Shown: positions 1,883 through 20,859 of the stretch, one piece after another | Layout of the letters: the number at the start of each line of letters is the position of its first letter | Position numbering within the stretch: the first letter of the stretch is position 1 | Made by a program: the position numbers and the translations under genes | Source: Pirellulales bacterium | Lineage (GTDB): Bacteria > Planctomycetota > Planctomycetia > Pirellulales > UBA1268 | Direction of reading: 5' to 3' | Length of the DNA stretch: 53,761 nt | Assembly: GCA_044237545.1 (NCBI GenBank) | Contig: JBIIFB010000003.1 | Coordinates: 1-53,761 of the forward strand | Notes under the pieces: generated by a model | The model's input: only the letters and a program-made list of their open reading frames with translations | Told to the model about the DNA's origin: nothing | The model's database searches: none

Positions 1883-1939
1883 GGGGCGAAGAGTCGCCAG
1901 GAATGGCCGCAGCGGGGTTTGGGCACCGCCAGCCGGCTC

Positions 1940-2050
1940 GCAGCGGCGTGCCCCGAGGCATGGGCGGAGGACCGCCGGCTGGCGAGGCTCGCCGAGTGTC
2001 TCAACTCGCTCCCGCCGCGGGCCCGGGAACTCGTGCGGCTGCGACGGCGT
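1940..2050 (+). pseudogene. Fragment of an ECF sigma-70 factor (start of region 4)
   Basis: WAEDRRLARLAECLNSLPPRARELVRLR matches the L-x-x-C-L-x-x-L-P-x-R-x-R-x-L-x-x-L-R pattern. Region 2 and the HTH are absent. Confidence 0.55.
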
Positions 2051-2292
2051 ACCCTTGTCGGAGGCCCAGGTCATGTTTCTGCCGACAACCGGCCGGCCAT
2101 GGACGGGGGTGACAGGCAGTTTCTTACGCGTAATCAGCGGCAGGCCGCGGCTCACGGGCTGCTCATCAACTCAGCGCTTGTGGCGGAAGTGCCATTGACC
2201 GGGCTATCCTTCCTTCATGCATGAGATCGCCCCTCATTCAAGATGGGATATTCCGCATGATTCAGAGGACTCCGAGACGAGGACCGATCACG

Positions 2293-5205
2293 ATGCATGC
2301 TGCGACCTCACCGCTTTTCTGGTCGTGGGGTTCCTGGTCGCGTGGTTCCTGGTCGTGTGGCCACTTTCTGGCTGGGCTCGTGAGACTGGCGGCAGTCGTC
2401 GCGGTCGTGACCAGCGTGGCAGCGGGCGGGGTGGCGGCCGAACCGCAGCCGCCCGGGTCTGCCTCGGCCCGCAACGTCGTCTTCATCATCTCGGACGACC
2501 AGCACTGGCGGGACTATTCGTTCATGGGCCATGGCCAGCTTCGCACACCGCACCTCGACCGGCTCGCACGGGAGAGCCTCGTCTTTCGTCGCGGCTATGT
2601 GACCAGCAGTCTCTGCTGCCCGAGCCTGGCGTCGATCATCACCGGCCGCTATCCGCACGAGCATCGGATCGTCGGCAACGATCCGCCGGAGGATCCGCTC
2701 AACCCTTGTGGCACGCCCGAAGGGAAGGCCGCCTTCGAGGCCGGCCGCGAACGGATGAACCGGCATCTGGAGGAATGGCCGACACTGCCCCGGATCCTCG
2801 GCGAGCATGGCTACCGTAGCCTGCAGACCGGGAAGTGGTGGCAGGGGGATTTTTCTCGCGGGGGGTTCACCGAGGGGATGACGAAAGGGGGACGGCACGG
2901 TGACGACGGGCTCACGATCGGTCGGAAGACCATGCAGCCGGTCAACGACTTTATGACGCGGAGCCGGCAGGATGGCAGACCGTTCATGGTCTGGTATGCC
3001 CCCATGCTGCCGCACGATCCCCACGATCCCCCGCAGGAACTGATCGATCACTACACGACGCAGACCGACAGCATTCACGTCGCGCGGTATTGGGGGAATG
3101 TCGAACGCTTCGACCGCACGGTCGGCGATCTGCTCGACCACCTGGACCGTGAGCAGCTCTCTGCAAACACACTGGTTGTCTATGTCACCGACAACGGCTG
3201 GATCCAGAAGACCGACACGGGAGGGTTTGCGGCCCGGTCGAAGCTGTCGCCCTACGACGGCGGCCTGCGGACGCCGATCATGCTCCGCCAGCCGGGGACG
3301 ATCGCACCAGGAATCAGCGACGCCCTGGCCAGTGCGATCGACCTCATGCCGACGGTGCTGGCCGCCTGCGGCATCCAGCCGCCGGCCGGCCTGCCGGGCT
3401 CAAACCTGCTCGAGCCGCAGGCGGTGGCGGCGCGGAAGCAGGTGTTCGGCGAGTGTTTTACCCACACGCTCGTCGACGTGGACGACCCTGCCAGGAGCCT
3501 GCTCTGGCGATGGACCGTCCGCGACCAGTGGAAGCTGATCGTGCCGGCAACGTCGGACGGTGCCGCCGGCTTCCCGCAGCATGAAGGTCGCCGCGTCGAT
3601 CCGGACTCGTGGGCCCGGTATGACCGCGGCGAGGTCGAACTCTTTGATCTGTTCGACGATCCCGACGAGACCAGAAACGTTGCGGCCGCGCATCCAGAGC
3701 TCGTGCGGGAATTGCGGCAGAGCCTCGATGCCTGGTGGACTCCGAAATTGGTTGATACGAAACGAGTCGACAAGAAGCTGGGAGATGCAAAGCCGGGCGA
3801 TGCGGCCCAATCCCAGCCGGTCGCGGTAACGCCAGCGACGCCGCCTGTTGCGAAGGCCACCAACCTGCTCGTTTTCCTGGCCGACGATCTCGGCGCCCAT
3901 GACCTCGGCTGCACGGGCAGTAGCTTCTATCGCACGCCGGCGATCGACCGGCTAGCCGCCTCCGGGATCCTCTTCACGCGGGCCTACGCCGCCTGTCCGG
4001 TCTGTTCGCCCACCCGCGCGGCGCTCATGACCGGCCGGCATCCCGCCCGCGTCGGGATCACGAATTTTATTGCAGGCAGTCGCCGCGGTCCGCTGCTACC
4101 AGCCGACTCTCTCCATGCCCTGCCCGATGAAGAGGTGACCATCCCCGAACTCCTCAAAGCCGCCGGCTATGACACCGGCGTTTTCGGCAAATGGCACCTG
4201 GGGAATCCCAAAGACATTCCGTCGCATGGATTCGCGACGACCGGCTCCACGACCGTCGGCCCCGGCCGGGGGCCGCTGGACGATCCGATGCATGCCCGGG
4301 CGATCGCGTCGCAGGCGTCGGCGTTCATCGCCGCCAGCCGCGACCAGCCCTTCTTCTGTTACGTCCCGATGCACTCGGTGCATGTGCCACTGAAGACCCG
4401 TCCGGAACTGGCCGCGGAGGAGGGCGGGCGGGCCGTTGGTGTCGGTCCGAAGTTTGATGTGCTGCCGCCGCCGGCCGGTGATCCGGTCACGCGGAGTGTT
4501 CAGGATCACCCCGTGTATGCCGGCATGATCCGCGAGATGGATGAGACGGTGGCCACGGTCTTGGCTGCCGTCGAAGAGGCCGGGCAGACGGACAACACGC
4601 TCGTCGTCTTCACCAGCGACAACGGCGGCCTTTCCACCGCCGAAGGGGCGCCGACCTCGAACCTGCCGCTCCGCGCGGGCAAGGGGTTTCTCTACGAGGG
4701 AGGCATCCGTGTGCCACTCGTCGTGCGGTGGCCGGGGGTCGTGAAGCCGGGAACAACGACCGCGGTGCCGGTCACCACGCTCGACATCGCCGCCACACTG
4801 CTCGAGGTCGCCGGCACGCAGCCGCCCGAGAAGGCCGTACTCGACGGCACGAGCCTTGAGCCGGTGCTCGCGGGCGGATCGCTCCCCGGACGCGATCTCC
4901 ACTGGCACTACCCCCACTACGCCAATCAGGGGAGCCGGCCTGCCGCCGCGATTATCGCGGGCGATGGTCCAAGCCCGGGGAGCGAGAAGCTGGTCGAGCA
5001 CTTCGAGGATGGCCGGCTGGAGCTCTTCGATCTGTCGAACGATCCGGGCGAGCGTCGCAATCTTTCTGACAGCCGTCCGGACCGGGCCGCGGCGTTGCAG
5101 GGCCGGTTGGCAGCATGGCGCACGAGCGTACAGGCGAAGATGCCCGTGCCCAACCCACAGCCGGTGGATCCGTTCGGTTCGGACGGCGAGCCAAGGAAAC
5201 GGTGA
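2293..5205 (+). CDS. Secreted tandem double sulfatase (two S1 formylglycine-type domains)
   Basis: Signal-like VRLAAVVAVVTSVAAGGVAA. Domain 1: NVVFIISDD, CCPSLASIITG, GKWW, TDNG. Pro/Ala/Lys linker at about 3745-3858. Domain 2: NLLVFLADDLG, CSPTRAALMTG, GKWHLG, SDNGG. Start uncertain (2221, 2257, 2293 with GAGGA, or GTG 2380). Confidence 0.92.
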   Translation: MHAATSPLFWSWGSWSRGSWSCGHFLAGLVRLAAVVAVVTSVAAGGVAAEPQPPGSASARNVVFIISDDQHWRDYSFMGHGQLRTPHLDRLARESLVFRRGYVTSSLCCPSLASIITGRYPHEHRIVGNDPPEDPLNPCGTPEGKAAFEAGRERMNRHLEEWPTLPRILGEHGYRSLQTGKWWQGDFSRGGFTEGMTKGGRHGDDGLTIGRKTMQPVNDFMTRSRQDGRPFMVWYAPMLPHDPHDPPQELIDHYTTQTDSIHVARYWGNVERFDRTVGDLLDHLDREQLSANTLVVYVTDNGWIQKTDTGGFAARSKLSPYDGGLRTPIMLRQPGTIAPGISDALASAIDLMPTVLAACGIQPPAGLPGSNLLEPQAVAARKQVFGECFTHTLVDVDDPARSLLWRWTVRDQWKLIVPATSDGAAGFPQHEGRRVDPDSWARYDRGEVELFDLFDDPDETRNVAAAHPELVRELRQSLDAWWTPKLVDTKRVDKKLGDAKPGDAAQSQPVAVTPATPPVAKATNLLVFLADDLGAHDLGCTGSSFYRTPAIDRLAASGILFTRAYAACPVCSPTRAALMTGRHPARVGITNFIAGSRRGPLLPADSLHALPDEEVTIPELLKAAGYDTGVFGKWHLGNPKDIPSHGFATTGSTTVGPGRGPLDDPMHARAIASQASAFIAASRDQPFFCYVPMHSVHVPLKTRPELAAEEGGRAVGVGPKFDVLPPPAGDPVTRSVQDHPVYAGMIREMDETVATVLAAVEEAGQTDNTLVVFTSDNGGLSTAEGAPTSNLPLRAGKGFLYEGGIRVPLVVRWPGVVKPGTTTAVPVTTLDIAATLLEVAGTQPPEKAVLDGTSLEPVLAGGSLPGRDLHWHYPHYANQGSRPAAAIIAGDGPSPGSEKLVEHFEDGRLELFDLSNDPGERRNLSDSRPDRAAALQGRLAAWRTSVQAKMPVPNPQPVDPFGSDGEPRKR

Positions 5206-5274
5206 CGGGTTAGACTCTTGATGGGCATGTGCCCACCAACTCCCGCGTCGATGCTCGAAGAAGGGCTCACGACT

Positions 5275-6615
5275 ATGATCTGCTCCCGTCCCCGTGGTGT
5301 GTCGCGTCGCCGTGGTGTGGCGGTGCTCGTCTGGGCAGCCGCCTTGATGGTCGCTTCGCATGGTCTGCCTGCTCGTCCGGCGCTGGCCGACAATTGGCCC
5401 AACTGGCGGGGCCCTGCGGTCGATGGTACGGCGGCGGGCGCGGGCTATGTCTCATCCTGGAGCCCGACTGAGCATGTAATCTGGCGGGTGAAGCTACCCG
5501 GGCTCGGCGCGAGCACGCCTGCCGTCTGGGGGAATCGCATCGTTGTCACCTGTGCGATCGATGGCAAGGATGCTGCGATCTGCCTCGATCGGGCCGGCCA
5601 GGAAATCTGGCGGCGGGAATTGGCCCCCGAGAAGCCCGGTAAGCACAAGAAGGCCACGGGCTCAAACCCGTCGCCGGTCACCGACGGCAAGCACGTCTGG
5701 GTTTATTATAAGAGCGGAGAACTGGCGGCCCTCGATCTGGCCGACGGCACTGTCGTCTGGCGGAAGAACCTCCAAGAAGTGTTCGGAGCAGACACGCTCT
5801 GGTGGGATCTCGGCACGTCGCCCGTGCTCACCTCCAAGGCCGTGGCCATCGCGGTGATGCAGACGGGCCCCAGCTACGTGGCGGCCTTCGACCGCTCAAG
5901 TGGCGACCTGCTCTGGAAACAGGACCGGATGCTCGATGCCCCCGAAGAGGCGGCGCAGAGTTATTCGACACCCGTGGTCTTTGGCGGCGACGCCGCCAAG
6001 GGAGAGCCGGCCGAGGTCATGATCGTGCTCGGCGCCGATCATGTGACGGCCCACGATGCGGCCACCGGAAAAGAACTCTGGCGGATGGGCGGGCTCAACC
6101 CTACCGGCCACAAGTATTTCCGGTCGATCGCCTCGCCGGTTGTGGCAGGTGATCTCGTCATCGCCCCCTATGCCCGCGGCGAAACGATCACCGCGATCCG
6201 TCGTGGCGGGGCTGGCGACGTGACGGGATCGCATCTCGCCTGGGTCCGCACCGATCTGGGCGCCGACGTGCCGACGCCGGCCGTCAAGGATGGGCGGATC
6301 GTCGTCTGCACCGACAAGGGGAGGGTGGAGTGCCTCGACGCCGCCACCGGCAAGACGCTCGCGAAGGCCGAACTGCCCAAAAACCGCAACGCCTACTCAG
6401 CCTCGCCCGTGATCGTGGATGGCAGGATCATCGTGACCCGCGAGGATGGTGAGTCGAGCGTGTTCGCATGGCCGGCCGCAGCCGCGGAGTCGCTCCCGCT
6501 CGTGGGGCAGGGGGGCGTTGATGAAATGACCGTGGCCACGCCTGTCTGTGTCGACGGGCAGATCTTTGTCAGGACCCATGATTCACTCTGGTGCTTTGGA
6601 GAAAAAGAACGATGA
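5275..6615 (+). CDS. PQQ-binding-like beta-propeller repeat protein (BamB-like), secreted
   Basis: Signal peptide followed by ADNWPNWRGP, WRVKLPGLGASTP and repeated SP...G..vW blades. Start could be 5218. Confidence 0.88.
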   Translation: MICSRPRGVSRRRGVAVLVWAAALMVASHGLPARPALADNWPNWRGPAVDGTAAGAGYVSSWSPTEHVIWRVKLPGLGASTPAVWGNRIVVTCAIDGKDAAICLDRAGQEIWRRELAPEKPGKHKKATGSNPSPVTDGKHVWVYYKSGELAALDLADGTVVWRKNLQEVFGADTLWWDLGTSPVLTSKAVAIAVMQTGPSYVAAFDRSSGDLLWKQDRMLDAPEEAAQSYSTPVVFGGDAAKGEPAEVMIVLGADHVTAHDAATGKELWRMGGLNPTGHKYFRSIASPVVAGDLVIAPYARGETITAIRRGGAGDVTGSHLAWVRTDLGADVPTPAVKDGRIVVCTDKGRVECLDAATGKTLAKAELPKNRNAYSASPVIVDGRIIVTREDGESSVFAWPAAAAESLPLVGQGGVDEMTVATPVCVDGQIFVRTHDSLWCFGEKER

Positions 6616-7823
6616 CTCGGCCGACCTCGATGACTTCGCTGCTGGTGGTCTCTATCGTGGCGTTGCTTGTGACACTCTCCGCGTCGCCGCCGCAGGCCGC
6701 CGAGACCGTGACGCAGGCCGCCGAGACAGCGCCGCAGGCCGCCGCAACGGCGACACCGGGCAAGCCGGCCAGGCTTCTGGCCGTCAGTGTGACCGCCGGC
6801 TTCCGCCATGGCTCGATCAACACGGCTGAACCGGTGCTCGAGGAACTCGGCCGCACGAGCGGTCTCTACCATCTCGACTTCCTGCGGATGCCGGAGGGCC
6901 GGCTGCCGCAGCCGAAGGCCCCCAAGCGGGCAGAGGGGGTGAGCGACGCCGACTGGAAACAGCAGGAGGAGGCCTTCAAGGCAGCGCAGGCAGACTTTCA
7001 GAAGGCCGACGCCGTCTGGCAGCAGGGCGTGAAAGAACAGTTTGCCAAGGCGTTTGCACCCGAGTCGCTTTCCCACTTCGACGGCGTCATCTTCCTGAGC
7101 ACGACCGGCGAGTTGCCGATCCCGGATCTGGCGGCGTTTCTCGAGTGGATCAAGACGGGCAAGGCCTTCATCGGCCTGCATGCCGCCAGCGACACGCTCA
7201 AGAGTTCAGACGACTACTGCGACATGATCGGCGGCCACTTCGCCGGCCATCCGTGGAACGGCGGCGGCCAGCATGCGTTTGTCGTACATGAACCAGGCCA
7301 CCGGCTCACCGCCATGCTGCCCGGGCGGTTTCGCTGGCAGGACGAGATCTATCAATACGATCCACGGTACAAGCCGGAGAATCTCCGCGTGCTCGTCAGC
7401 CTCGAGATGCAGGGCAGCACGCCCAAGGAACCATGGCACGTGCCCGTGTCGTGGGTTCGCGAGTATGGGGCGGGCCGGGTCTTCTACACGAACTTCGGCC
7501 ATAACGACGCGACCTGGAAAGAGCCGATGTTTCAGAAGCACATGAGCGAGGGGATCGCCTGGGCGCTCAAGACTTTTGACGCACCGGCCACACCCAACCC
7601 CGACGTGCAGGCGGCGGAATATCTCCGCAGCGTGATCGCCGCCGTTGGTGTCGCTACGGGCAAGAATGCCGACGACCTTCTGGCCAAGGTCGACGCGAGA
7701 ATTGCCCGGGATGCCTCGTGGGCGACGGGCCTGCGGCCGCTGCTGCTAGAACTGCGGGGCCTCAAGCCCGAGTCGAGGGCCGAGGCCTATGCCAAGGTGC
7801 TCTCGGCGATCGACAAGCCGTAG
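6612..7823 (+). CDS. ThuA-domain (class I glutamine amidotransferase-like) secreted protein
   Basis: GFRHGSI, FIGLHAASDT, GGHFAGHPW, DEIYQY, GRVFYTNFGHN; ATGA overlap with the upstream stop. Confidence 0.88.
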   Translation: MTRPTSMTSLLVVSIVALLVTLSASPPQAAETVTQAAETAPQAAATATPGKPARLLAVSVTAGFRHGSINTAEPVLEELGRTSGLYHLDFLRMPEGRLPQPKAPKRAEGVSDADWKQQEEAFKAAQADFQKADAVWQQGVKEQFAKAFAPESLSHFDGVIFLSTTGELPIPDLAAFLEWIKTGKAFIGLHAASDTLKSSDDYCDMIGGHFAGHPWNGGGQHAFVVHEPGHRLTAMLPGRFRWQDEIYQYDPRYKPENLRVLVSLEMQGSTPKEPWHVPVSWVREYGAGRVFYTNFGHNDATWKEPMFQKHMSEGIAWALKTFDAPATPNPDVQAAEYLRSVIAAVGVATGKNADDLLAKVDARIARDASWATGLRPLLLELRGLKPESRAEAYAKVLSAIDKP

Positions 7824-7882
7824 GCGTGCCCGGCCGAACGTGGACGAGTTCATGCCCTGACCTGACGACAGGAAGGATTGTT

Positions 7883-10800
7883 ATGACCAAGACACTCGTC
7901 GCCTGCCTCTGGGCTGCCGTGCTCGCCGGTATTCCGTTTCGGGAAATGGCCGCCGCGCCGCCGAACGTGGTCGTGATCCTGGCCGACGATCTCGGCTTCT
8001 CCGATCTTGGCTCGTATGGCGGTGAGATCGACACGCCCTCGCTGGATAGCCTTGCCGCCGGCGGCCTGCGATTCACCCAAGGCTATAACACCGCCCGTTG
8101 CTGGCCGACCCGGGCCGCGCTCTTGACCGGCTACTACCCGCAGGCGGTTCGCCGCGACTCGCTGCCCGGCGGCAAGAATGGCAAGGGAACGCGGCCCGCC
8201 TGGGCGCGGCTGCTGCCCGAACTCCTCATGCCCTCAGGCTACAGGAGCTACCACTCCGGCAAGTGGCACATCGACGGCGACCCGCGGTCTCAGGGGTTTG
8301 CCCGATCGCTCGACATCACCAAGGGGGACAACAACTATTTCTCCGCCAACGGCGTCGTCGAGGACGGCCGGCAGGTGCCGGTCACGGACGATTTCTATGC
8401 CACGACCGCGATCGGCGACCACGCCGTCACGTGTCTGGCCGACCATGCCAGGGATCATGCCGGCACGCCGTTCTTCCACTACGTGCCCTTCACGTCGCCG
8501 CACTTCCCGCTGCATGCCCCGCCTGAACTGATCGAGAAATACCGCGCGAGGTACCGGGCCGGCTGGAATGCCGTGCAGGCGGCCAGGGCGCAACGGCTCA
8601 ACGACCTGGGTATCGTGACGAACCAGCCGGCGGCAATGGAGCGGGACGTGGGCCCTCCCTACCACAATGCCGACGCCCTGGAGCAACTCGGGCTCGGTGA
8701 GATCAATCGGCCGCTGCCGTGGGAGGAACTCACGCCAAAGCAGCGGGAGTTTCAGATCGGGAAGATGGCGATCCATGCCGCGATGATCGACTGCATGGAC
8801 CAGCAGGTGGGCCGGATTCTCGCGCAGCTCAAAGCTATGGGCGTGTTCGACGACACACTCGTGCTCTTTGCCAGCGACAATGGAGCCTCGGCCGAGATCA
8901 TGGTCCGTGGCGAGGGGCACGATCCGCAGGCCCCGCCGGGATCGAGAAAGACGTTTCTCTGTCTTGGACCAGGCTGGTCGAGCTGCGCGAACACCCCGTT
9001 TCGTCGTCACAAGACCTGGGTGCACGAGGGGGGTATCGCGACGCCCTGGATCGTCCATTGGCCGCATGGGGTGTCGGCCAAGGGGGAGCTCCGCGGTCAG
9101 CCTGTCCACGTGATCGACGTCGTGCCGACGGTCCTCGAACTGGCCGGCATCTCCCCGCCCCGCGACCAGGCCGGAAAGCCCGTGCCGCCGCTGCAGGGCA
9201 AGAGTTTTGCTCGAGCCCTGAGGGATCCCGCTGCCCCGCCGGCGCACGACAGCCTCTGGTGGTGCCACGAGGGGCACCGGGCCGTCCGTGTTGGCGACTG
9301 GAAACTCGTCGCGGCCAAGGGCATGCCGTGGGAACTCTACGATCTGGCCCGCGATCGCTGCGAAACCACCAGTCTCGCGGCCGGTGAGCCAGCCCGTGTG
9401 CAGGCGCTCGAGGCGGCCTGGAACCAGACCGCGGAGGAGTGCCGGGCTCTGGCCGCGGCCGATGCCGGGGTGGCTCCCCCGGCCAGTGAGGCGAGGCCTG
9501 CGGCAGATGCGACGCGGCCGCAGCCGAACATCATCTACGTGATGACCGATGACCAGGGCTATGGCGACGTCGCCGCCCATGGCAATCCCATCATCCGCAC
9601 GCCGAATCTGGACCGGCTCCACGGACAAAGCGTTCGGCTGACCGAGTTTCACGTGAGCCCCACCTGTTCGCCGACGCGGGCCGCGCTGATGACCGGCCGT
9701 CACGAATTCCGCTCCGGCGTCACGCACACGATCCTCGAGCGTGAACGGCTGGCGCTCTCCGCGACCACGCTGCCGCAGGTGCTCAAGGCGGGCGGCTACA
9801 CCACCGGCATCTTTGGCAAGTGGCATCTCGGCGACGAGGACGCCTACCAGCCCGGACGCCGTGGCTTCGACCGGGTCTTCATCCACGGTGGCGGCGGGAT
9901 TGGGCAGTCGTATCCCGGCAGTTGCGGCGACGCGCCGGGCAATTCCTATTTCAATCCGTTGATCCGCAGCGACGGCACGTTCGTGAACACGAAGGGCTAC
10001 TGCACCGACGTCTTCTTCGACGAGGCGGTCACCTGGATGGATGCCACCCGGAAGGGCGGCAAGCCGTTTTTCTGCTATGTCGCCACCAACGCGCCGCACG
10101 GGCCGCTCGACTGCCCGCCCGGCTCCGACACGCCGTATCTGGCACAGCTCGAGGCCGCCGGCATCAAGGATCCCAAGCAGCGGGCGGACATCGCAAAGTT
10201 CTACGGCATGATCGAGAACATCGACACCAATGTCGGCAGGTTGCTTGTGAAACTCGACGAGTGGGGGATCGCCGACAACACGCTGCTCGTGTTCACGACT
10301 GACAACGGCACGGCCACGGGAGCCCCGGTCTCGAGCGCCGGGATGCGTGGGGTGAAGGGCACGGCCTATCGCGGCGGCACCCGCAGCGTGAGCTATTGGC
10401 GGTGGCCGGGCAGGCTGCCTGCGGGCGTGGACGTGCCCGCCCTCACGGCGCATATCGATGTGTTCCCAACGCTCTGCGAGTGTGCGGGGGCGGAGCTACC
10501 GGCTGGCGTCGCGGCGAAGGTCGAAGGCAGGAGCCTCATGCCGCTGCTAGAGGATGCAAAGGCTCCCTGGCCCGACCGGCCGTTGTTCACGCACCTCGGC
10601 CGCTGGGATCGCGGCAAGGTGGCAGAGGCAGCGTATCGACAGTGCCGGGTCCGCGAGGGGAAGTGGAGTCTGGTGAACGTCAAGAACACTCCCAGAGCGT
10701 GGGAGCTCTACGACGTCGCCGCTGATCCAGGCGAGAAGAACGACGTCGCGGGCCGCCATCCCGACGTCGTGGCCCGGCTCGGTGGAACGTACGACCGCTG

Positions 10801-11764
10801 GTGGGCCAGCGTGCAGCCGGACCTCGTCAACGAAGATCTCGACGGCCCGTCCGAGAATCCCTTCAAGACGGCCCATGCCCGGCAGTTCGGCCCACCGCCG
10901 ACGCTTTCCGACGTTTCCTACGGCCCGCATCCCAAGCAGGTGATGCACTTCTGGAAGACGCCCCGGGCAACGGCCGAGACCCCCGCGCCGCTGGTGTTTT
11001 TCATCCATGGCGGCGGCTGGCAGGGAGGCGATCGGCTCAGCGGTCTGGCGACCATGCTGCCCCGGCTCCTTGATGCGGGAATCTCGGTCGCGAGCGTTGA
11101 ATACCGGTTTATCAAGGAGGCGATGGATGAGCAGATCGACCCGCCGGTGAAGGCGCCGCTCTCGGATGCCGCTCGCGGCCTTCAGACCGTACGCAGCAGG
11201 GCGTCGGAGTGGCATGTTGACCCGAACCGGATCGCCGCCAGCGGCGGGTCGGCGGGCGCCTGCACAAGCCTCTGGCTGGCGTTCCACGACGACATGGCAG
11301 ATCCGGCCAGCAGCGACCCGGTGGCGCGGCAGTCGACGCGTCTGGTCACCGCAGCGGTCACTGGTGCCCAGACCACGCTCGATCCGGTGCAGATGAGGGA
11401 GTGGACGCCCAACAGCCGCTACGGCGGCCATGCCTTCGGCTTCATGCCGAGCCCCGAGAAGCGTGACACGCAGTTTGCCGAGTTTCTCGCGGCCCGCGAC
11501 CGGCTGCTGCCGGTGATCAATCAGTATTCGCCCTATGCACTCGTGTCGGCGGACGATCCACCGGTCTCTCTCTTCTACGGGTCGCCACCGGCTCTCGGGC
11601 GGGATGCCAAGGACCCCACGCACACGTCGAACTTTGGCATCAAGCTCAAGGAGCGGTGCGACGCGGCCGGCGTGCCCTGCGAACTGGTCTACCCGAAGGC
11701 ACCGAATGTGACGCATGCGACCGTGGTAGACGCCCTGATCTCCGCGCTTGACAAGAGCAAGTGA
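7883..11764 (+). CDS. Secreted sulfatase-sulfatase-alpha/beta esterase fusion
   Basis: AGGAAGGA RBS and signal peptide. Domain 1 PNVVVILADDLG/CWPTRAALLTG; domain 2 PNIIYVMTDDQG/CSPTRAALMTG; C-terminal HGGGW...GGSAG esterase (HSL/BD-FAE-like) from about 10900. Confidence 0.92.
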   Translation: MTKTLVACLWAAVLAGIPFREMAAAPPNVVVILADDLGFSDLGSYGGEIDTPSLDSLAAGGLRFTQGYNTARCWPTRAALLTGYYPQAVRRDSLPGGKNGKGTRPAWARLLPELLMPSGYRSYHSGKWHIDGDPRSQGFARSLDITKGDNNYFSANGVVEDGRQVPVTDDFYATTAIGDHAVTCLADHARDHAGTPFFHYVPFTSPHFPLHAPPELIEKYRARYRAGWNAVQAARAQRLNDLGIVTNQPAAMERDVGPPYHNADALEQLGLGEINRPLPWEELTPKQREFQIGKMAIHAAMIDCMDQQVGRILAQLKAMGVFDDTLVLFASDNGASAEIMVRGEGHDPQAPPGSRKTFLCLGPGWSSCANTPFRRHKTWVHEGGIATPWIVHWPHGVSAKGELRGQPVHVIDVVPTVLELAGISPPRDQAGKPVPPLQGKSFARALRDPAAPPAHDSLWWCHEGHRAVRVGDWKLVAAKGMPWELYDLARDRCETTSLAAGEPARVQALEAAWNQTAEECRALAAADAGVAPPASEARPAADATRPQPNIIYVMTDDQGYGDVAAHGNPIIRTPNLDRLHGQSVRLTEFHVSPTCSPTRAALMTGRHEFRSGVTHTILERERLALSATTLPQVLKAGGYTTGIFGKWHLGDEDAYQPGRRGFDRVFIHGGGGIGQSYPGSCGDAPGNSYFNPLIRSDGTFVNTKGYCTDVFFDEAVTWMDATRKGGKPFFCYVATNAPHGPLDCPPGSDTPYLAQLEAAGIKDPKQRADIAKFYGMIENIDTNVGRLLVKLDEWGIADNTLLVFTTDNGTATGAPVSSAGMRGVKGTAYRGGTRSVSYWRWPGRLPAGVDVPALTAHIDVFPTLCECAGAELPAGVAAKVEGRSLMPLLEDAKAPWPDRPLFTHLGRWDRGKVAEAAYRQCRVREGKWSLVNVKNTPRAWELYDVAADPGEKNDVAGRHPDVVARLGGTYDRWWASVQPDLVNEDLDGPSENPFKTAHARQFGPPPTLSDVSYGPHPKQVMHFWKTPRATAETPAPLVFFIHGGGWQGGDRLSGLATMLPRLLDAGISVASVEYRFIKEAMDEQIDPPVKAPLSDAARGLQTVRSRASEWHVDPNRIAASGGSAGACTSLWLAFHDDMADPASSDPVARQSTRLVTAAVTGAQTTLDPVQMREWTPNSRYGGHAFGFMPSPEKRDTQFAEFLAARDRLLPVINQYSPYALVSADDPPVSLFYGSPPALGRDAKDPTHTSNFGIKLKERCDAAGVPCELVYPKAPNVTHATVVDALISALDKSK

Positions 11765-11837
11765 GCCCGGCTGCTGACGCGGTGCCCACACTCAAGCCAA
11801 GAGCTACAGCTGGACGAAACGGACTGGAGCGGCCTGT

Positions 11838-14800
11838 ATGAACCAGAGCCTGTGGGTGCGGTGTGTCGTCGGCGTGCTGGCGGCGTTGTGGGTGGGTGGG
11901 CTCCAGGCCAGCCCGCCACGGCCGCCGAATATAGTGTTCTTTCTCTGCGACGATCTCGGGAGCGGTGATGTCGCCGCACTGGGTTCGCAGGATATCCAGA
12001 CACCCAACATCGACCGGCTCTTCGCCCGCGGCACCCGGCTCACACGGCACTGGGCCGGCAATGCCGTCTGCGGGCCGAGTCGGTGCGTGCTGATGACGGG
12101 CAAGCATCCGGGCCATGCGACGGTTCGCAGCAACCGCGAGGTGAAACCTGAAGGCCAGGCTTCGATGCCGGCCGGCACGGTCACGCTCGCGAGAGTCCTC
12201 AAAGAGGCCGGGTATGCCACGGGTGGCTTCGGGAAGTGGGGCCTTGGCCCGCCGGGCAGCGAGTCTGATCCGATCGCGTGTGGGTTCGACACATTCTTCG
12301 GCTACAACTGCCAGCGGGAGGCGCACTCGTTCTACCCCGACCACCTCTGGGACGGCCGCACCCGCGTCGCCGTCGACAACACGTCGCTCGCCGGAGGCCC
12401 CGTGCCCCGCGGCGGCACGGTGGCGGCCGACCAGGGAGCGTTCCCCGACTCGTTTGCCCCGTACGTCGGCCGGAACTATTCAGCCGACCTGATCGCCGAG
12501 CGGCAACTTGCGTTTATCAAGGATAACGCCGGCCGGCCGTTTTTCGTCTATGTGCCGACGACGGTGCCGCACCTGGCGCTGCAGGTGCCCGCCGACGAGC
12601 CGTCGCTGGCGGCCTACGACAAGCACTTCGGTGGCGAGGAGCCCTATCTCGGCGGCAAGGGCTACGTGCCCTGTCGGCGACCGCTCTCCACCTACGCCGC
12701 GATGATCACGCGGATGGACCGTGAGGTCGGCAGGATCGTCACGCTCCTCGACGCCCTCAAGCTCACCGACGACACGATCTTCGTCTTCTCGAGCGACAAC
12801 GGCGCGGCCAGTCCTGGCAGTGGCGGGATCGACACCGCACGACTCAGGAGCAACGGCGGTCTCCGGGATTGGAAGGGATCTCCGTACGAAGGTGGGCTGA
12901 GTGTTCCCACGGCGATCGCCTGGCCCGGGAGGATTCCCGCCGGCCGATCGATCGACGCCCCCACGGGCTTCGAGGACTGGCTGCCCACACTCCTCGATCT
13001 TGCCGGGCTGCACCAACGCATACCCCCCGGCCTCGACGGGGTGAGCCTCGCCGCTGCCCTGCGTGGTGAAGCGGAAGCCGATCCTGATCGCATGCTCTAC
13101 CGTGAGCTCACCGAGCGGTCATGGCAGGCGGCCGTCGACGGTCGCTGGAAGGCGGTCCGCCGCGGCAAGGGCAATCGGAAAACTCCATCCACGGAGGCTC
13201 ATCCGACGGAACTCTACGATCTCGCGGCCGATCCCGGCGAGTCACACGACGTCGCTGCCGATCACCGCGATGTTGTCCGCCGGATGGAGGCGATCCTCGA
13301 CCGCGAGCATGTGCCCCATCCCGACTGGCCACTGCCGTTTGCCGACATCGGCAGGCAGCCGCAGCCGGCTCCGGCCGCCGCGGCGACCAAACGGCCCAAC
13401 ATCCTCTACATCATTGCCGACGACCAGTCGCCCTTCGACCTCACGTGCTACAACCCCGCCTCGACACTCGACACGCCGGTGATCGACCGGCTCGCCGCTG
13501 AAGGAATGGTGTTTGACGCGGCGTATCACATGGGCTCGTTCTCCGGGGCGGTCTGCACGCCGAGCCGGCACATGGTGATGTGCGGCCGGTCGGTCTGGCA
13601 CCTGCCGATCGGGCCCACCAAGACGTCGTGCCCGCCAGACATCGTTCAGTGCACACTCGCGCCGGTTTTCAATCGAGCCGGCTACGACACGATGCGGACC
13701 TGCAAGCAGGGCAATGCCTACGAGGGCGCCGACAAACTCTTCACGATCCGCCACGACGCCACCAAGCGGGAGGGCACGCACGAGGGGGGCAGCGGCTGGC
13801 ACGGCGACCGGGTCATGGAGTATCTCGCGGAGCGGGAGCAAACGAAGGATGCCGACCCGTTCCTGATCTACTTCGGCTTCTCGCATCCGCACGACACTCG
13901 CGACGGCACGCCGGAACTACTCGCAAAATACGGCGGCACCAACCACACCGACAGGTCGTCGCCGCCGGCCGCCGATCCGCGGCAGCCGCCCCTGCCGCCC
14001 ACCTGGCTGCCCAGGCACCCCTTCGATCATGGCCACATGGATGTCCGCGACGAGGTGGCGGTGAGCGGAGTGTGGGATCGCCGGGACGCGACCACGATTC
14101 GTAATGAACTGGGCCGTGAATACGCCTGCAGCGAAAATATCGACCGGCAGATCGGCCGGGTGCTTGAGAAGCTCGCGGCGATGGGCGAGCTCGACAACAC
14201 GTGGATCTTCTACACCGCTGACCACGGCATGGCGATCGGCCGCCACGGCCTGCAGGGGAAGCAGAATCTCTACGAACACACCTGGCGGGTGCCCTTCATT
14301 GTGAAGGGGCCGGGCGTGAAGCCGGGAAGTCGCGCCCCCGGCAACATCTACCTCGGCGACACGCTGGCCACGCTCTGCGACATCTCCGGTATTGCGCCGC
14401 CGGTCTCGAACGAGGGCACGAGTGTTCTGCCGGTGCTCGAGGGGCGGCAGCAGACCGTTCGCGACGTCCTGTACGGCGTTTACTGTGGCGGCCAGAAGCC
14501 GGGGATTCGCAGTGTGCGGCAGGGGGACTGGAAGCTCATCAAGTATGAGTCGCCTTCCGGCGGCCTCCACACGCAGCTGTTCAACCTACGGGAAAACCCG
14601 CAGGAGTTTCTTGCCGAGCACCATGATCCGTCGGTCGCCCAGGCCACTACGGCGGTGCCCCAGCCACTCCAAAAAAACCCACTCCAGAAAAACCCCCTCC
14701 AAAAAAACTTGGCCGCCGATCCGGCCCACTCCGAAAAACGTGCCGCAATGGAGGCTGTTCTCCTTGCCGAGATGCAGCGGCACGATGATCCATTTCGGTT

Positions 14801-16157
14801 TTCCGACCAGCCTGTGAAGGAGCCCGCACCGCAGACGAAGCAGACGAAGGAGACGAAGGAGACCGAGAAAGCCGCGGCGGCGGCACGGCCCAACATCGTG
14901 CTCTTTCTGGCGGATGACCTCGGCTACGGCGAACTGGGCTGCTACGGCAACACCGCGGCCATCACCCCGAATCTCGACCGCTTCGCCACCCAGGGGCTGC
15001 GATACACCGACTGCCATTCGGCCTCGAGCGTCTGTTCGCCGTCGCGGTCGAGCCTCCTCACCGGTCGCACGCCCTTTCGCAACGGTGTCTTCACCTGGAT
15101 CCCGGAGAAGAGCCCGATCCACCTCCGCACCAGCGAGAGTGCGCTGCCGAAGCTTCTGTCGGCTGCCGGTTACGACACCTGCCACGTAGGTAAATGGCAC
15201 CTGAACGGCCTGTTCAACTCGCCCGAGCAGCCGCAGCCCGATGCCCATGGCTACGCCTGGTGGCTCGCCACGCAAAACAACGCCGCGCCGAGCCATGCGT
15301 TTCCCGAGAACTTCGTCCGCAACGGTGCCGCCATTGGGAAGGTCGACGACTACTCCGCGCCGTTCATCGCCAAGGAAGCGGCGACATGGCTCGAGACCAA
15401 GCGGGATCCGGCCAAGCCGTTCTTTCTCGCTGTCTGGACGCACGAGCCGCACTATCCGATCGCATCGGCCGAGCGGTACGAAAAGCTGCACGCCGGTATC
15501 GCCGACCCCGAGGAACGGACCTACCGGGCCAACGTCACGCAGCTCGACGACGCCTTCGGCACGGTCATGCAGGCGCTCGACGCGATCGGGGCGACCGACT
15601 CGACACTCGTCTTCTTTTCGAGTGACAACGGTCCCGAAGGCGACGGCAACAAGGGGCCGGGCCGCGGCCTGGCCGGTGGACTTCGCGGCCGCAAGCGGTC
15701 GATGTACGAGGGGGGTCACCGCGTGCCCGGCATGCTTCGCTGGCCGGCGAAGATCGAACCGGGAGCCGTGAGCGATCTGCCGGTGATCGGCAGCGATTTT
15801 CTGCCGACGGCCCTCCGAGCGGCCGGGCTCGAGCCGCCGCCGGGCCGGACGCTCGACGGCGTCGACATCCGCGGCCCCGCGGTCGAACGCACGCGGCCCA
15901 TGTACTGGCGGTGGGGCGGATTCGTGGCCTACCGCGAAGGGCCGTGGAAGATCGTCGTGGACGAGGCCCTCGAGAAGCCTGAACTCTACAACCTCGCAGA
16001 CGATCGCGCGGAGACGACGAATCTCGCTGTCCGCGAGACGGAGCGTCTCGCCGCCATGCTGACCCGGCTGCGGATCCTGCAGGGGGAGATCGAGGCCGAG
16101 GGCCCGGACTGGTGGCGGACCGAGCCAATGAGTGGCCTGAAGAAGAAGAAGGGCTGA
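11838..16157 (+). CDS. Secreted triple sulfatase polyprotein (1439 aa)
   Basis: Signal peptide, then three PN-x-x-x-x-x-x-DD starts (about 11925, 13395, 14889) with CGPSR, CTPSR and CSPSR motifs, separated by Pro/Ala/Gln/Lys linkers; no internal stop. Confidence 0.93.
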   Translation: MNQSLWVRCVVGVLAALWVGGLQASPPRPPNIVFFLCDDLGSGDVAALGSQDIQTPNIDRLFARGTRLTRHWAGNAVCGPSRCVLMTGKHPGHATVRSNREVKPEGQASMPAGTVTLARVLKEAGYATGGFGKWGLGPPGSESDPIACGFDTFFGYNCQREAHSFYPDHLWDGRTRVAVDNTSLAGGPVPRGGTVAADQGAFPDSFAPYVGRNYSADLIAERQLAFIKDNAGRPFFVYVPTTVPHLALQVPADEPSLAAYDKHFGGEEPYLGGKGYVPCRRPLSTYAAMITRMDREVGRIVTLLDALKLTDDTIFVFSSDNGAASPGSGGIDTARLRSNGGLRDWKGSPYEGGLSVPTAIAWPGRIPAGRSIDAPTGFEDWLPTLLDLAGLHQRIPPGLDGVSLAAALRGEAEADPDRMLYRELTERSWQAAVDGRWKAVRRGKGNRKTPSTEAHPTELYDLAADPGESHDVAADHRDVVRRMEAILDREHVPHPDWPLPFADIGRQPQPAPAAAATKRPNILYIIADDQSPFDLTCYNPASTLDTPVIDRLAAEGMVFDAAYHMGSFSGAVCTPSRHMVMCGRSVWHLPIGPTKTSCPPDIVQCTLAPVFNRAGYDTMRTCKQGNAYEGADKLFTIRHDATKREGTHEGGSGWHGDRVMEYLAEREQTKDADPFLIYFGFSHPHDTRDGTPELLAKYGGTNHTDRSSPPAADPRQPPLPPTWLPRHPFDHGHMDVRDEVAVSGVWDRRDATTIRNELGREYACSENIDRQIGRVLEKLAAMGELDNTWIFYTADHGMAIGRHGLQGKQNLYEHTWRVPFIVKGPGVKPGSRAPGNIYLGDTLATLCDISGIAPPVSNEGTSVLPVLEGRQQTVRDVLYGVYCGGQKPGIRSVRQGDWKLIKYESPSGGLHTQLFNLRENPQEFLAEHHDPSVAQATTAVPQPLQKNPLQKNPLQKNLAADPAHSEKRAAMEAVLLAEMQRHDDPFRFSDQPVKEPAPQTKQTKETKETEKAAAAARPNIVLFLADDLGYGELGCYGNTAAITPNLDRFATQGLRYTDCHSASSVCSPSRSSLLTGRTPFRNGVFTWIPEKSPIHLRTSESALPKLLSAAGYDTCHVGKWHLNGLFNSPEQPQPDAHGYAWWLATQNNAAPSHAFPENFVRNGAAIGKVDDYSAPFIAKEAATWLETKRDPAKPFFLAVWTHEPHYPIASAERYEKLHAGIADPEERTYRANVTQLDDAFGTVMQALDAIGATDSTLVFFSSDNGPEGDGNKGPGRGLAGGLRGRKRSMYEGGHRVPGMLRWPAKIEPGAVSDLPVIGSDFLPTALRAAGLEPPPGRTLDGVDIRGPAVERTRPMYWRWGGFVAYREGPWKIVVDEALEKPELYNLADDRAETTNLAVRETERLAAMLTRLRILQGEIEAEGPDWWRTEPMSGLKKKKG

Positions 16158-16330
16158 TACACACGCGGGTGGTGTCTGCTGGGCTGGCGATGCTCGATAT
16201 GGAAGCCGCAGGCAGAGGCGTCGACAACCCACCGAACGGTAGCAAGCAACCTGCCGCCACGGTGGAAGGCGGGTCTGCTAGACTCCCGGGCCGCGGATCG
16301 TCCGCGGGAACCAGTCGTCGGGAGGCGGGC

Positions 16331-16636
16331 ATGTCGGCACGTAAATCGTCAGATGAATCATCAGATGGGACGTCAGCTCGATCGCATGGCACGGTTCCGG
16401 CCGCGACCGCCACGAGCCGGATCGGCCTGGCCCTCTTCTGGATCTACGTGCTGCTCTACGCCGGCTTCATGGCCCTGGTGCTCTTTCGCCCGGATCTCTT
16501 GTCGCTGCGGCCCTTCGGCGGCGTGAATCTGGCCATCGCCTACGGGATGGGGCTCATCGCCGGTGCATTCCTGTTGGCCATCGTCTACATGGCCGCCTGT
16601 CGGGCCGTCGAAGGCGGCGGCCCGCCCCGCGGCTGA
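16331..16636 (+). CDS. DUF485 (YjcH-like) inner-membrane protein
   Basis: GGAGG RBS; two TM segments, GLALFWIYVLLYAGFM and GVNLAIAYGMGLIAGAFLLAIVYM; lies directly upstream of actP, the usual arrangement. Confidence 0.85.
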   Translation: MSARKSSDESSDGTSARSHGTVPAATATSRIGLALFWIYVLLYAGFMALVLFRPDLLSLRPFGGVNLAIAYGMGLIAGAFLLAIVYMAACRAVEGGGPPRG

Positions 16637-16707
16637 TCCCATCCCGCGGCAACCCATCCCGCAGCGAAACCGTTTCACACGTTGTGTCTGGAAAGGACTC
16701 CCGGCCC

Positions 16708-18459
16708 TTGCTCTACGAATCCTCCCCCGTCGCCATTGCGATCTTTGCGGCCTTTGTGCTGAGCGTCATCGGCCTGTCGTTCTACCTTGGCCGCAAAGGT
16801 CAGTCGGCCAAGGGCTACTATGCCGCCCACGGCGAGATCCACTGGTTCGTCAACGGCATCGCCTTCGCGGGGGATTATCTCTCGGCGGCATCATTTCTCG
16901 GCATCTGCGGGATGATCGCCTTCAACGGCTACGACGGCTTCCTCTACTCCATCGGCTTCCTGGCCGGCTGGATCGTGGCACTCTTCGTGATCGCCGAGCC
17001 GATCAAGGCGCTCGGGAAGTTCACCTTCGCCGACGCCCTCGACAGCCGGTTCAACAGCCGCGGCATCAAGTTGGCGGTGGCGATCTCGACGCTCGTCGTC
17101 AGCATCTTCTATCTCATCCCGCAGATGGTCGGTGCCGGCGACCTGATCGTGCCGCTGCTAGGACTGCCGCACACCGCCGGCGTGATCCTCGTGGGCGTGG
17201 CGGTCACCATGATCGTGGTCACGGCGGGCATGGTTTCCACCACCTGGGTGCAGTTCATCAAGGGCTCGTTGCTCGTGTTTTTCTGCGGCATCCTTGCCGC
17301 GATGATTCTCGACCGGGGCCTCGTGGTCGGCTCGGGCCCCGCCGCAAACCTCACGCCGCAGGTCCGCACGGTCACTCCCGATGGCAGTGTGCTCGTCGAC
17401 GGCGTCCGGCAGTCGAAGGGCCACGACCTCCGGCCGGTCGGCACGCTCCTTGCGCTGCCGGCCCGCTATGCCGGAAAAACAGCCACCGGCCCCCTGCGGC
17501 CGCTGGAATATCTCTCCGCGCTCGAGGACTCGACGATCGTCACCTGGACGAGCAAGAAGCACACCGACTCAAGCGGCACCCATACGACCTTCTCGCCCGT
17601 TGAGCGGAAGGGATCCGATCTGCTCAAGCCGGGCGGCTATTTCAAGGGACTCACCTCCGGGAAGCTTGCCGACAGGCTCGATTTCGCCAGTCTGATGCTC
17701 GCGCTGTTTTGCGGCACCGCCTCGCTGCCGCACATCCTCATCCGCTACTACACGGTCAAGGACGCCGCCGCGGCGCGGAAGAGCACCGTCGTGGGCATCG
17801 CCGCGATCGGCGCCTTCTACGTGCTCACGCTCTATCTGGGCTTGGGCGCGATGACCAGCGGGGCCCTCGACCCCACCAGCACCAACATGGCTGCGCCGCT
17901 CCTGGCGAAATCGTTCAGCACCACGCTGTTTGCGATCATATCGGCGATCGCGTTCACGACGGTGCTCGGCACGGTGAGCGGTCTGATCATGGCCGGCAGC
18001 GGCGCGGTGGCCCACGACCTCGTCGAAAACGTCTTCGGCATCCCGATGACAGATCACGAGAAGGTGCGGTGCGGCAGGATCGCGGCAGTGGGCCTGGGGA
18101 TCATCGCGATGGTGCTGGGCGTGCTGTTTCGCAACTTCAATGTCAGCTTCCTCGTGGGCTGGGCGTTCAACATCGCCGCGAGTGCCAACCTGCCCGCGCT
18201 CGTGATGCTGCTGTTCTGGCCACGGACGACCAAGCAGGGAATCATCGCCGCGGTGACGGTGGGCATGTGCTCGTCGCTGGCGTGGATCCTGCTCTCGGCC
18301 GACACCTTCGAGAAGGTCTATGGCTGGAGCCGGGAGGCGTCGATCGTGCCCTTCAGCCAGCCCGGGCTCGTGACGATCCCGCTGGGATTCCTCGTGCTCG
18401 TTGTCGTGTCGTTGCTCACGCCGCCACAGCCGACGGCAGCGGTGCGTCGCCATGCGTGA
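16708..18459 (+). CDS. actP: Cation/acetate symporter ActP (solute:sodium symporter family)
   Basis: NGIAFAGDYLSAASFLG, GKFTFAD, YLIPQMVGAG, GTASLPHILIRYYTV, TVLGTVSGL. Probable TTG start at 16708 after AAAGGA. Confidence 0.9.
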   Translation: MLYESSPVAIAIFAAFVLSVIGLSFYLGRKGQSAKGYYAAHGEIHWFVNGIAFAGDYLSAASFLGICGMIAFNGYDGFLYSIGFLAGWIVALFVIAEPIKALGKFTFADALDSRFNSRGIKLAVAISTLVVSIFYLIPQMVGAGDLIVPLLGLPHTAGVILVGVAVTMIVVTAGMVSTTWVQFIKGSLLVFFCGILAAMILDRGLVVGSGPAANLTPQVRTVTPDGSVLVDGVRQSKGHDLRPVGTLLALPARYAGKTATGPLRPLEYLSALEDSTIVTWTSKKHTDSSGTHTTFSPVERKGSDLLKPGGYFKGLTSGKLADRLDFASLMLALFCGTASLPHILIRYYTVKDAAAARKSTVVGIAAIGAFYVLTLYLGLGAMTSGALDPTSTNMAAPLLAKSFSTTLFAIISAIAFTTVLGTVSGLIMAGSGAVAHDLVENVFGIPMTDHEKVRCGRIAAVGLGIIAMVLGVLFRNFNVSFLVGWAFNIAASANLPALVMLLFWPRTTKQGIIAAVTVGMCSSLAWILLSADTFEKVYGWSREASIVPFSQPGLVTIPLGFLVLVVVSLLTPPQPTAAVRRHA

Positions 18460-18997: not shown

Positions 18998-19224
18998 GCG
19001 TCCGCGCTGGGACTTCCCGTATACAAGCCCTGAGCGTGAGCGTGCATACAAGCCCTGAGCGTAAGCGACGGGATCTGTCTTCGTGCCGGGCTTGCGAATC
19101 GTGTGCCGCTGCCGATCCCCCGGCTCACGCCGGGGGCTTGTATGGGGAGGGATTCTTCGCGGTGGCGATCCTCCCACGCCGCATACAAGCCCTGAGCGTA
19201 AGCGACGGGATCTGTCTTCGTGCC
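18985..19224. repeat. REP cluster 1 (five full or partial palindromic units)
   Basis: ATACAAGCCCTGAGCGT(G/A)AGCGACGGGAT-type units at 18985, 19021, 19046 and 19183, plus an inverted GATCCCCCGGCTCACGCCGGGGGCTTGTAT at about 19114-19143. Fills the gap between convergent genes. Confidence 0.88.
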
Positions 19225-20717: not shown

Positions 20718-20859
20718 GGAGAGGTCTCCCCGAAGAAGGTCAGTAAGGTACGACAAAGAGGTGCGAGAAAGAGCTACGAGAGAGGCAGGCAGCCTTCGCT
20801 CTCTATTCGTATCCCTATCCTACCGTCCTGCCACTGCCGGCCAAGCAGTCGCCGATTCC

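Follow-up and report, generated by a model that had tools for sequence, protein, structure and literature searches.

We analysed a 53,761-nucleotide stretch of DNA (the window), which is contig C243 in the 298-contig metagenome-assembled genome (MAG; 3.77 Mb, 92% completeness) of an uncultured lake planctomycete of the order Pirellulales. The subject here is a sulfatase gene island near the start of the window, at positions 2293-16157. The listing of open reading frames (ORFs) together with a Pfam search showed five co-directional genes on the plus strand, in the order chain 1, a propeller protein, a ThuA-domain protein, chain 2 and chain 3 (Table 1). Each chain carries several catalytic-type modules, which we named A-B in chain 1, C-D-X in chain 2 (X being an esterase) and E-F-G in chain 3. 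The intergenic gaps across the five genes are 12, -25, 59 and 73 nt. An alternative ATG for chain 1 lies at position 2221. For chain 2, the ATG at 7883, which is followed by a signal-like peptide, is the likely start, in preference to a GTG at 7718. A preliminary description of this DNA had pictured a dedicated, co-directional system consisting of a block of three sulfatase chains. The common orientation stood, and the idea of a dedicated system gained support, since the gene order recurs in many related MAG loci (see below). The block is not made of sulfatases only, because the propeller and ThuA genes separate chain 1 from chain 2.

All seven sulfatase modules matched the Pfam family PF00884 (Sulfatase). 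This family covered two, two and three stretches of the three ORFs (E values of 5.9e-104, 1.1e-101 and 5.6e-138), with whole-protein scores of 348, 340.6 and 459.7 bits (cut-off, 25). At the genomic level there were seven separate PF00884 matches (E 9.8e-57 to 4.1e-35), and no internal stops were found in the three frames. The C-terminal part of the second ORF (residues 1085-1289) matched PF20434 (BD-FAE) at 65 bits, compared with a cut-off of 26.8, and its translation shows HGGG as the oxyanion motif and GGSAG as the G-x-S-x-G nucleophile elbow of an alpha/beta hydrolase. The domain counts proposed initially, namely two, two plus an esterase, and three, were borne out by Pfam and by the open frames, and the motifs quoted with them (CCPSL, CSPTR, CWPTR, CSPTR, CGPSR, CTPSR and CSPSR, for A to G in that order) are all present. 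The catalytic signature C/S-x-P/A-x-R, with Cys51 as the nucleophile and Arg55 in AtsA numbering, was found in modules B-G. In the orthologues of these six modules (n = 16, 53, 56, 29, 14 and 11, respectively), the C-x-P-x-R, Asp-Asp and D-N/H-G metal motifs are kept. All seven modules show an N-terminal DD and a DNG (DHG in the case of F), and their orthologues keep both. The G-K-W-H signature (Lys113 and His115) reads GKWH in B, C, D and G, GKWW in A, GKWG in E (29/29 orthologues) and CKQG in F. According to the SulfAtlas paper (Barbeyron et al. 2016, PMC5066984), the His of this signature is only 81% conserved in the S1 family, so the deviations in A, E and F do not exclude S1 membership.

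The pairwise identity among the seven modules ranged from 22.8 to 34.0% over all 21 comparisons, which agrees with the earlier proposal that divergent subfamilies, rather than recent tandem duplicates, were fused. Tandem duplication was considered as the origin of the modules and is ruled out by this identity of 23-34%. The genome has 18 matches to the FGE-sulfatase family PF03781 (best score, 268.8 bits), so formylglycine formation is plausible. These data show the island to encode six predicted canonical formylglycine-type sulfatase modules, one Arg-less sulfatase-like module and one putative BD-FAE esterase. Of the seven complete sulfatase domains counted in the preliminary description, six (B-G) are canonical and module A departs from the catalytic signature. 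A genome-wide search returned 19 PF00884 matches, corresponding to about 17 sulfatase modules; seven of these modules are in the three chain genes, and every multi-module PF00884 frame of this genome sits in this block. As an observation of its own, tandem PF03781 domains also occur within single frames of the same genome (G000:C43:4439-6733, locus L080, and G000:C75:7123-11707, locus L079), with three such domains in one 1342-aa frame on C43; multi-module chaining is thus not confined to sulfatases.

Table 1. Features of the sulfatase island and of the genes that follow it (positions in the window).
Feature	Position	Strand	Remarks
Chain 1, 970 aa	2293..5205	+	signal-like N-terminus, module A, Pro/Ala linker, module B; 2 Pfam sulfatase stretches
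Module A	2293-3744	+	CCPSL, no Arg; GKWW
A-B linker, Pro/Ala	3745-3843	+	
Module B	3844-5202	+	CSPTR
PQQ_2/BamB-like beta-propeller protein	5218..6615	+	PF13360, E 2.1e-29; signal-like N-terminus; syntenic in relatives
ThuA-domain protein	6591..7823	+	PF06283, E 6.5e-43; signal-like N-terminus; syntenic in relatives
Chain 2, 1293 aa from ATG 7883	7883..11764	+	2 Pfam sulfatase stretches and a C-terminal BD-FAE esterase
Module C	7883-9451	+	CWPTR; followed by an Ala/Pro linker
Module D	9509-10891	+	CSPTR
BD-FAE esterase X	10892-11761	+	PF20434; HGGG and GGSAG read by eye
Chain 3, 1439 aa	11838..16157	+	signal peptide, modules E, F and G; 3 Pfam sulfatase stretches
Module E	11838-13349	+	CGPSR, GKWG; followed by a linker
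Module F	13383-14660, C-terminal tail to 14830	+	CTPSR, DHG; followed by a repeat-rich linker
F-G fusion junction	14830..14831	+	blastn blocks, junction sequences, independent contigs
Module G	14874-16154	+	CSPSR
Sodium:solute symporter (SSF)	16684..18459	+	PF00474, E 1.8e-70
Gfo/Idh/MocA oxidoreductase	19224..20756	-	PF01408/PF19051; twin-arginine-like leader SRRDF

Module A deviates most clearly from the canonical pattern. Its motif CCPSL (window 2614-2628) lacks Arg55 of the catalytic signature, and GKWW takes the place of GKWH. The SulfAtlas text gives Arg55 as 99% conserved in S1 and mentions nine sequences from the Planctomycetes-Verrucomicrobia-Chlamydiae (PVC) group in which this Arg is replaced by Leu or Ile and which "may be inactive" (PMC5066984). 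Module A matches these PVC sequences, but the Arg-less type seen here is a large conserved group and not a rare oddity. When module A was used as a query, 7021 proteins were found at E <= 1e-20 among 7999 scored, and CCPSL is kept in 22/22 module A orthologues and in 118/120 listed stand-alone homologues, down to 56% identity and including one Limisphaerales record. Because Arg55 is missing, we call module A sulfatase-like rather than count it among the established S1 sulfatases. The strict conservation of the variant motif argues that module A has some role. A side observation concerns its partner: in 4 of the 77 related loci described below, module A and the PQQ-type propeller stand in one frame from which module B is absent (L014:2-2266, L021:6814-9858, L050:3601-6417 and L052:6994-9987). 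These joint frames were read from stop to stop and are possible frameshifts; they hint that the Arg-less module may work with the propeller.

To see how widespread such chains are, we searched a collection of 5.8 billion proteins with chain 3, restricting the length to 791-2519 aa. There were 483 matches among the 8000 candidates scored, and the 120 listed matches were mapped onto eight modules. Two sulfatase modules were found in 77 of these proteins, three in 30, four in 7 and five in 6, and the esterase was included in 7 of the 120. These listed relatives are built from orthologues of the window's modules (about 65-95% identity), combined in at least 27 distinct architectures. E-F alone accounts for 46 proteins, down to about 66% identity, and other combinations are C-D-X-E-F, C-D-E-f-d, C-D-G, C-D-X-F, D-F, D-G and E-f-G.

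A second scan, with chain 2 against one genome per GTDB species, gave 322 relatives, from which 77 loci were kept; nearly all of them come from lake MAGs labelled Pirellulales or Planctomycetes. The locus architectures were read from stop-to-stop frames of MAG contigs. The recurrent gene order was A-B / propeller / ThuA / (single sulfatase) / C-D-X / E-F / H-G / SSF / ... Gfo(-), where H is a module that the window does not have. An ORF with at least two modules was present in 59 of the 77 loci, with at least three in 21, with at least four in 5 and with five in 2. The A-B fusion was found in 14 loci, C-D-X in 19 and C-D without X in 12. Synteny of the island therefore extends over many species, whereas for each module the fusion state differs from locus to locus. 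By its own terms, the preliminary description would be countered if such architectures were already common and described. This is largely the case, as multi-module ORFs are common in the related loci and a two-domain sulfatase gene has already been described in planctomycetes (Kim et al. 2016, PMC4807772). An E-F-G chain with all three orthologous modules was not found in any of the 120 listed proteins or 77 loci, and this exact chain is private to the population of the window.

To examine the distribution among families, we searched an even sample of 150 genomes of the order with C-D-X. A joint C-D frame was present in 4 of the 9 genomes belonging to the window's family, compared with 0 of 75 matching genomes from 29 other families, in which C-like and D-like frames were separate and nearly all about 435-950 aa long. 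Genomes of the window's family are 3.0-4.0 Mb, and the matching genomes of other families are mostly 4-10 Mb. When PF00884 was searched in 20 relatives, long frames (998-1899 aa) were found in same-genus genomes only, among the 150 of about 496 matches listed. Given 4/9 in the own family versus 0/75 elsewhere, together with the recurrence in the loci, the chains are a family trait and not a one-off. The architecture is real, conserved and ordinary for its family, and it extends an already described kind.

The origin of the E-F-G chain became apparent from a comparison with the closest locus, L001. According to blastn, nucleotide identity was 76% over A-B, the propeller and ThuA, 81% over C-D-X, 96% over E-F (window 11903-14830), 78% over G and 84% over the symporter. 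The E-F block corresponds to L001:14040-16952, and L015:1859-3292 is 96.9% identical over E; both loci belong to representatives of other GTDB species. The E-F alignments of all relatives end at window position 14830. In L001, E-F ends in a stop codon that shares nucleotides with the start ATG of another two-module gene, H-G. The window is without module H (about 1.45 kb), and its frame passes from the last residues of F into a Q/E-T-K repeat of the H-G linker and then into G. The comparison with L001 thus indicates that the triple chain is the product of a local in-frame deletion, which was seen again in runs X2-X4 (see below). Also absent from the window is a single sulfatase gene between ThuA and C that is present in L001, L003, L004, L005 and L019.

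Since these data come from a MAG, we checked the junctions on contigs that had been assembled separately from four lake-water metagenome runs, none of them the possible source; being contigs and not raw reads, they may hide rare variants. Every linker was bridged by independent contigs with 0-2 mismatches, as follows: the A-B linker by X2 record 1 and X3 record 10; the C-D junction by X2 record 4, X3 record 13 and X4 record 21; the D-esterase junction by X4 record 22; the gap between chains 2 and 3 by X2 record 5; the E-F junction by X2 record 6 and X3 record 15; and the F-G junction by X2 record 8 and X4 record 24, both with 0 mismatches. In the repeat-rich linker, an in-frame 9-nt deletion was found at 14831 in X3 and a 3-nt deletion at 14874 in X7. 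These results bear on the explanation that the long ORFs are artefacts, produced by a chimeric MAG assembly or by frameshift errors that joined neighbouring genes. The window is one contig of 298, and the jump of identity from 96% in E-F to 76-84% in its flanks resembles a strain chimera. Because this jump coincides with the F-G junction, an assembly chimera at that point was weighed in particular, and it was rejected on the independent contigs. Contigs from three other runs bridge the junctions almost without mismatch, one of them carrying the in-frame 9-nt variant at the junction itself; the A-B, C-D-X and E-F chains recur in many independent assemblies; and all frames are open with their motifs intact. 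We therefore regard an artefact as very improbable.

The sequences around the linkers suggest how the chains arose. Stand-alone F modules (L031, L034, L035, L037 and L044) and stand-alone G modules (L010, L023, L031, L032, L034, L037 and L044) have a typical signal peptide directly before a conserved RPNI motif, which in F and G precedes the DD (RPNI...DD). In internal copies, an Ala/Pro-rich linker replaces the signal peptide, and the internal linkers of L021, L050 and L052 still resemble hydrophobic signal cores. The linkers thus look like decayed signal peptides. They also contain short tandem peptide repeats (window 14661-14873 and about 14610-14660), with PLQKN occurring three times along with Q/E-T-K repeats; their copy number is variable, L001 having two PLQKN units. 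A chain could arise through loss of the stop codon that separates two neighbouring, closely spaced sulfatase genes, or through an in-frame deletion that takes out a module. After the fusion, the signal peptide of the downstream gene would decay into an Ala/Pro-rich linker. Because a chain could be split again only by acquiring a start and a signal peptide anew, fusions would pile up in the lineage like a ratchet. As for the movement of modules between species, we observed mosaics in L004 and L038, with amino acid identities of 71% for E and 93% for F. These mosaics, and the 96-97% nucleotide identity of E-F compared with 76-84% in the flanks, suggest a recent exchange of modules between species.

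Next, we considered export and function. In each chain, the most hydrophobic 15-residue stretches are N-terminal only (positions 25-35, 1-6 and 5-10, respectively). Since the sole strongly hydrophobic stretch is N-terminal, each chain has one predicted export signal, in line with the single N-terminal signal peptide per ORF noted in the preliminary description. All soluble products of the island have export signals, and the symporter is the only membrane protein. An AlphaFold2 model of E-F, built with 55 aligned sequences, had a mean predicted local distance difference test score (pLDDT) of 85 and a predicted template modelling score (pTM) of 0.56, with linker residues 509-516 below a pLDDT of 50. 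The model, with well-folded domains and a disordered linker, fits an arrangement as beads on a string.

The nearest solved relatives gave some indication of specificity. For module B this was 9fo1, a "k-carrageenan sulfatase S1_16" (E 7.4e-109); for D, 7stt (E 4.9e-57); for E, 7ana (E 5.8e-105) and 7an1 (E 7.2e-72); and for G, 3ed4 (E 4.8e-74). For modules A and F, the best solved relatives were only distant ones, 6prm (E 1.6e-29) and 5g2v (E 7.4e-28), respectively. Module C was closest to 7all (E 1.2e-81), then to 536-aa "arylsulfatase" entries such as 1hdh, which we take to be AtsA of Pseudomonas aeruginosa. All but two of the 48 matching PDB sequences are 451-583 aa long, the exceptions being 9s8a (682 aa) and 9s8x (1263 aa, N-terminal half not inspected); a solved multi-sulfatase chain was not found among them. 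Among these structures, 7ALL is BT4683 (S1_4, 3S-Gal), 7ANA/7ANB is BT1622 (S1_20, acting on 3S-Gal and 3S-N-acetylgalactosamine [3S-GalNAc]) and 7AN1 is BT1636 (S1_20) (PMC10154620). The resulting subfamily hints, S1_16 for B, S1_4 for C and S1_20 for E, are a proxy by nearest solved structure and not by the SulfAtlas hidden Markov models, and A, D, F and G have no clear subfamily. When NCBIfam was searched for substrate names, all modules matched only generic arylsulfatase and choline-sulfatase models, far below cut-offs. The likely relatives weakly suggest a substrate with galactose or GalNAc sulfate esters at several positions, from which acetyl esters might be removed by X. The Pfam scan of 5 + 24 window ORFs revealed neither a glycoside hydrolase nor a polysaccharide lyase, and the island, whose content is limited to the sulfatases, esterase, propeller, ThuA, SSF transporter and Gfo, does not qualify as a polysaccharide utilisation locus (PUL).

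Taken together, these data lead us to propose, with a little better than even confidence, that the chains are real exported hydrolases with several modules each, encoded by a conserved desulfation operon that is specific to this family of small-genome freshwater Pirellulales, that they originated by the fusion ratchet described above, and that they are of benefit for co-export and co-localisation. A chain would be made in the cytoplasm, where its catalytic Cys residues would be converted to formylglycine by one of the FGE homologues of the genome. Sec would then export it as one polypeptide of beads on a string, and a fixed 1:1(:1) set of complementary position-specific sulfatases, with a deacetylase, would be brought to the same place. 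The target may be a glycan or oligosaccharide with heterogeneous sulfation, partial acetylation and probably a high content of galactose/GalNAc, whose products could be taken up by the symporter or oxidised by the Gfo and ThuA proteins. The benefit most likely lies in co-export and co-localisation at a low genomic cost, and not in an obligatory tethered mechanism. Several points weigh against this proposal. We infer co-transcription of the island only from its short gaps. Module A, without the catalytic Arg, may be no sulfatase. The subfamily and substrate assignments rest on nearest PDB entries at moderate E values, and A, D and F are without a close characterised relative. With no glycoside hydrolase or lyase in the scanned ORFs, a glycan substrate is a guess; oligosaccharides, small sulfated molecules or sulfur scavenging would fit as well. 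The pTM is a weak proxy for domain packing, so that a low value by itself is compatible with packing between modules. Some of the fusions or splits in the loci could be sequencing frameshifts, given that they were read from stop-to-stop frames of MAG contigs. Finally, the persistence of E-F over wide divergence could reflect selection for tethering.

This last point belongs to a reading that we consider rather unlikely, in which tethering itself is adaptive and the linked modules form an assembly line that keeps hold of one polymer molecule while it removes several different sulfates and acetyl groups, with synergy over free enzymes. It would account for the fact that all modules within a chain differ in type, that an esterase is built into chain 2 in 19/77 loci, that fusions are concentrated in one family, and that they were kept over long divergence (E-F in 46/120 listed proteins, A-B in 14 loci, C-D or C-D-X in 31 loci). 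However, the same orthologous modules are free, paired or reordered in close relatives (F and G alone in L031, L034 and L044; C-D-G, D-F, D-G and C-D-X-F elsewhere), and in the window the island remains otherwise intact although module H and the additional single sulfatase found in L001 have been lost. Moreover, no fixed geometry between modules was predicted (pTM 0.56), and a ratchet through the lost internal signal peptide explains persistence without any benefit. The variable fusion states and the E-F model thus lean against a strict need for tethering. The disordered, Ala/Pro-rich linkers, some of them signal-peptide-like with Ala-x-Ala ends, and the signal-peptide-like cores kept in some relatives would also suit a scheme in which the chains are precursors, cut at the linkers after export to give single-module working enzymes. 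We think this improbable: the island ORFs scanned include no protease, the linkers of the window itself have no hydrophobic core, and the top hydrophobic stretches are all N-terminal. A bolder interpretation of the module exchange, which we find unlikely, is that the modules are exchangeable cassettes, moved between species singly or in pairs and rejoined at the linker/RPNI boundary, and that they make up a natural combinatorial library, with chains of two to five enzymes that vary in composition according to the sulfated substrate present locally. In its boldest form, the order of a chain would be the order of the desulfation steps, and module A would be a non-catalytic binder of sulfated glycans or a new catalytic type partnering the propeller.

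The closest precedent for the proposed fused hydrolases is the work of Kim et al. (2016, PMC4807772), who reported that two marine planctomycetes carry a gene with a pair of sulfatase domains, attributed this gene to the joining of unrelated neighbours, and also noted sulfatase fusions with esterase/lipase domains. The present chains are alike in that at least two unrelated S1 sulfatase domains from adjacent genes share an ORF. Compared with the fusions of that paper, the chains reported here reach a length of three modules in the window and of five in relatives; a single conserved operon of a freshwater, small-genome family holds three of them; and the same orthologous modules are documented in fused as well as in split form, together with a specific deletion junction. 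SulfAtlas handles sulfatases module by module (Stam et al. 2023, PMC9825549), and its Methods state that proteins with several FGly-sulfatase modules are split into modules (PMC5066984). Modules B-G carry the S1 signatures of that classification. A further parallel is found in the PULs of Bacteroidetes, where several position-specific sulfatases are co-encoded for one complex sulfated glycan, as with the mucin O-glycan sulfatases BT4683 (S1_4) and BT1622 and BT1636 (S1_20) of Bacteroides thetaiotaomicron (PMC10154620). Among solved structures, the B. thetaiotaomicron sulfatases are the closest to modules C and E. In those PULs the sulfatases are separate proteins that accompany SusC/D and glycoside hydrolases, whereas here the chains are fused and uptake would be through an SSF symporter; neither a glycoside hydrolase nor SusC/D was found in the island. 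We found no description of chains with at least three sulfatase modules, or of this freshwater island, in the open-access literature.

Sulfatases control the access to sulfated glycans, a large pool of organic carbon and sulfur, and nearly all of their biochemistry has been worked out on single-module enzymes of gut and marine bacteria. The freshwater family amounts to a natural experiment, in which the same orthologous modules are free, paired or chained up to five, and it lets the question of tethering be addressed. It also illustrates a simple route of gene fusion in streamlined genomes, through stop loss, decay of internal signal peptides and a ratchet. The Arg-less, "inactive" type of sulfatase is a large conserved group that is worth an assay. 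For annotation, the lesson is that counts of sulfatase genes underestimate modules, 7 of about 17 modules being in 3 genes.

The genes that follow the chains were also inspected. The symporter is closest to monocarboxylate/acetate symporters of the MctC/ActP type, below the cut-offs of the NCBIfam models (MctC, 422.7 bits with a cut-off of 670; ActP, 402 bits with a cut-off of 750). In 23 loci with a ThuA gene, the last of the sulfatase genes is followed by this symporter. The Gfo/Idh/MocA oxidoreductase is a distant match to a glycoside 3-dehydrogenase family (133.7 bits, cut-off 750) and is found again downstream in many related loci. A scan of positions 1500-21000 returned no promoter-like sites, a result that has no say on the transcription unit. 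Over the same positions, 16 terminator-like sites were found versus 9.3 expected, none of them in an intergenic gap of the plus strand.

Elsewhere in the window, a stand-alone BD-FAE esterase is encoded at 27159-28757 on the minus strand. A single-module sulfatase (34014-35468, plus strand) lies just after a pair consisting of a histidine kinase and a LuxR response regulator (31184-33876), and a homologue of arylsulfotransferase (ASST) is present at 51184-52695 on the minus strand. The plus strand also carries, at 39354-48110, a 2918-aa ORF that resembles polyketide synthases or polyunsaturated fatty acid synthases, with KS, AT, ACP, KR and DH domains.

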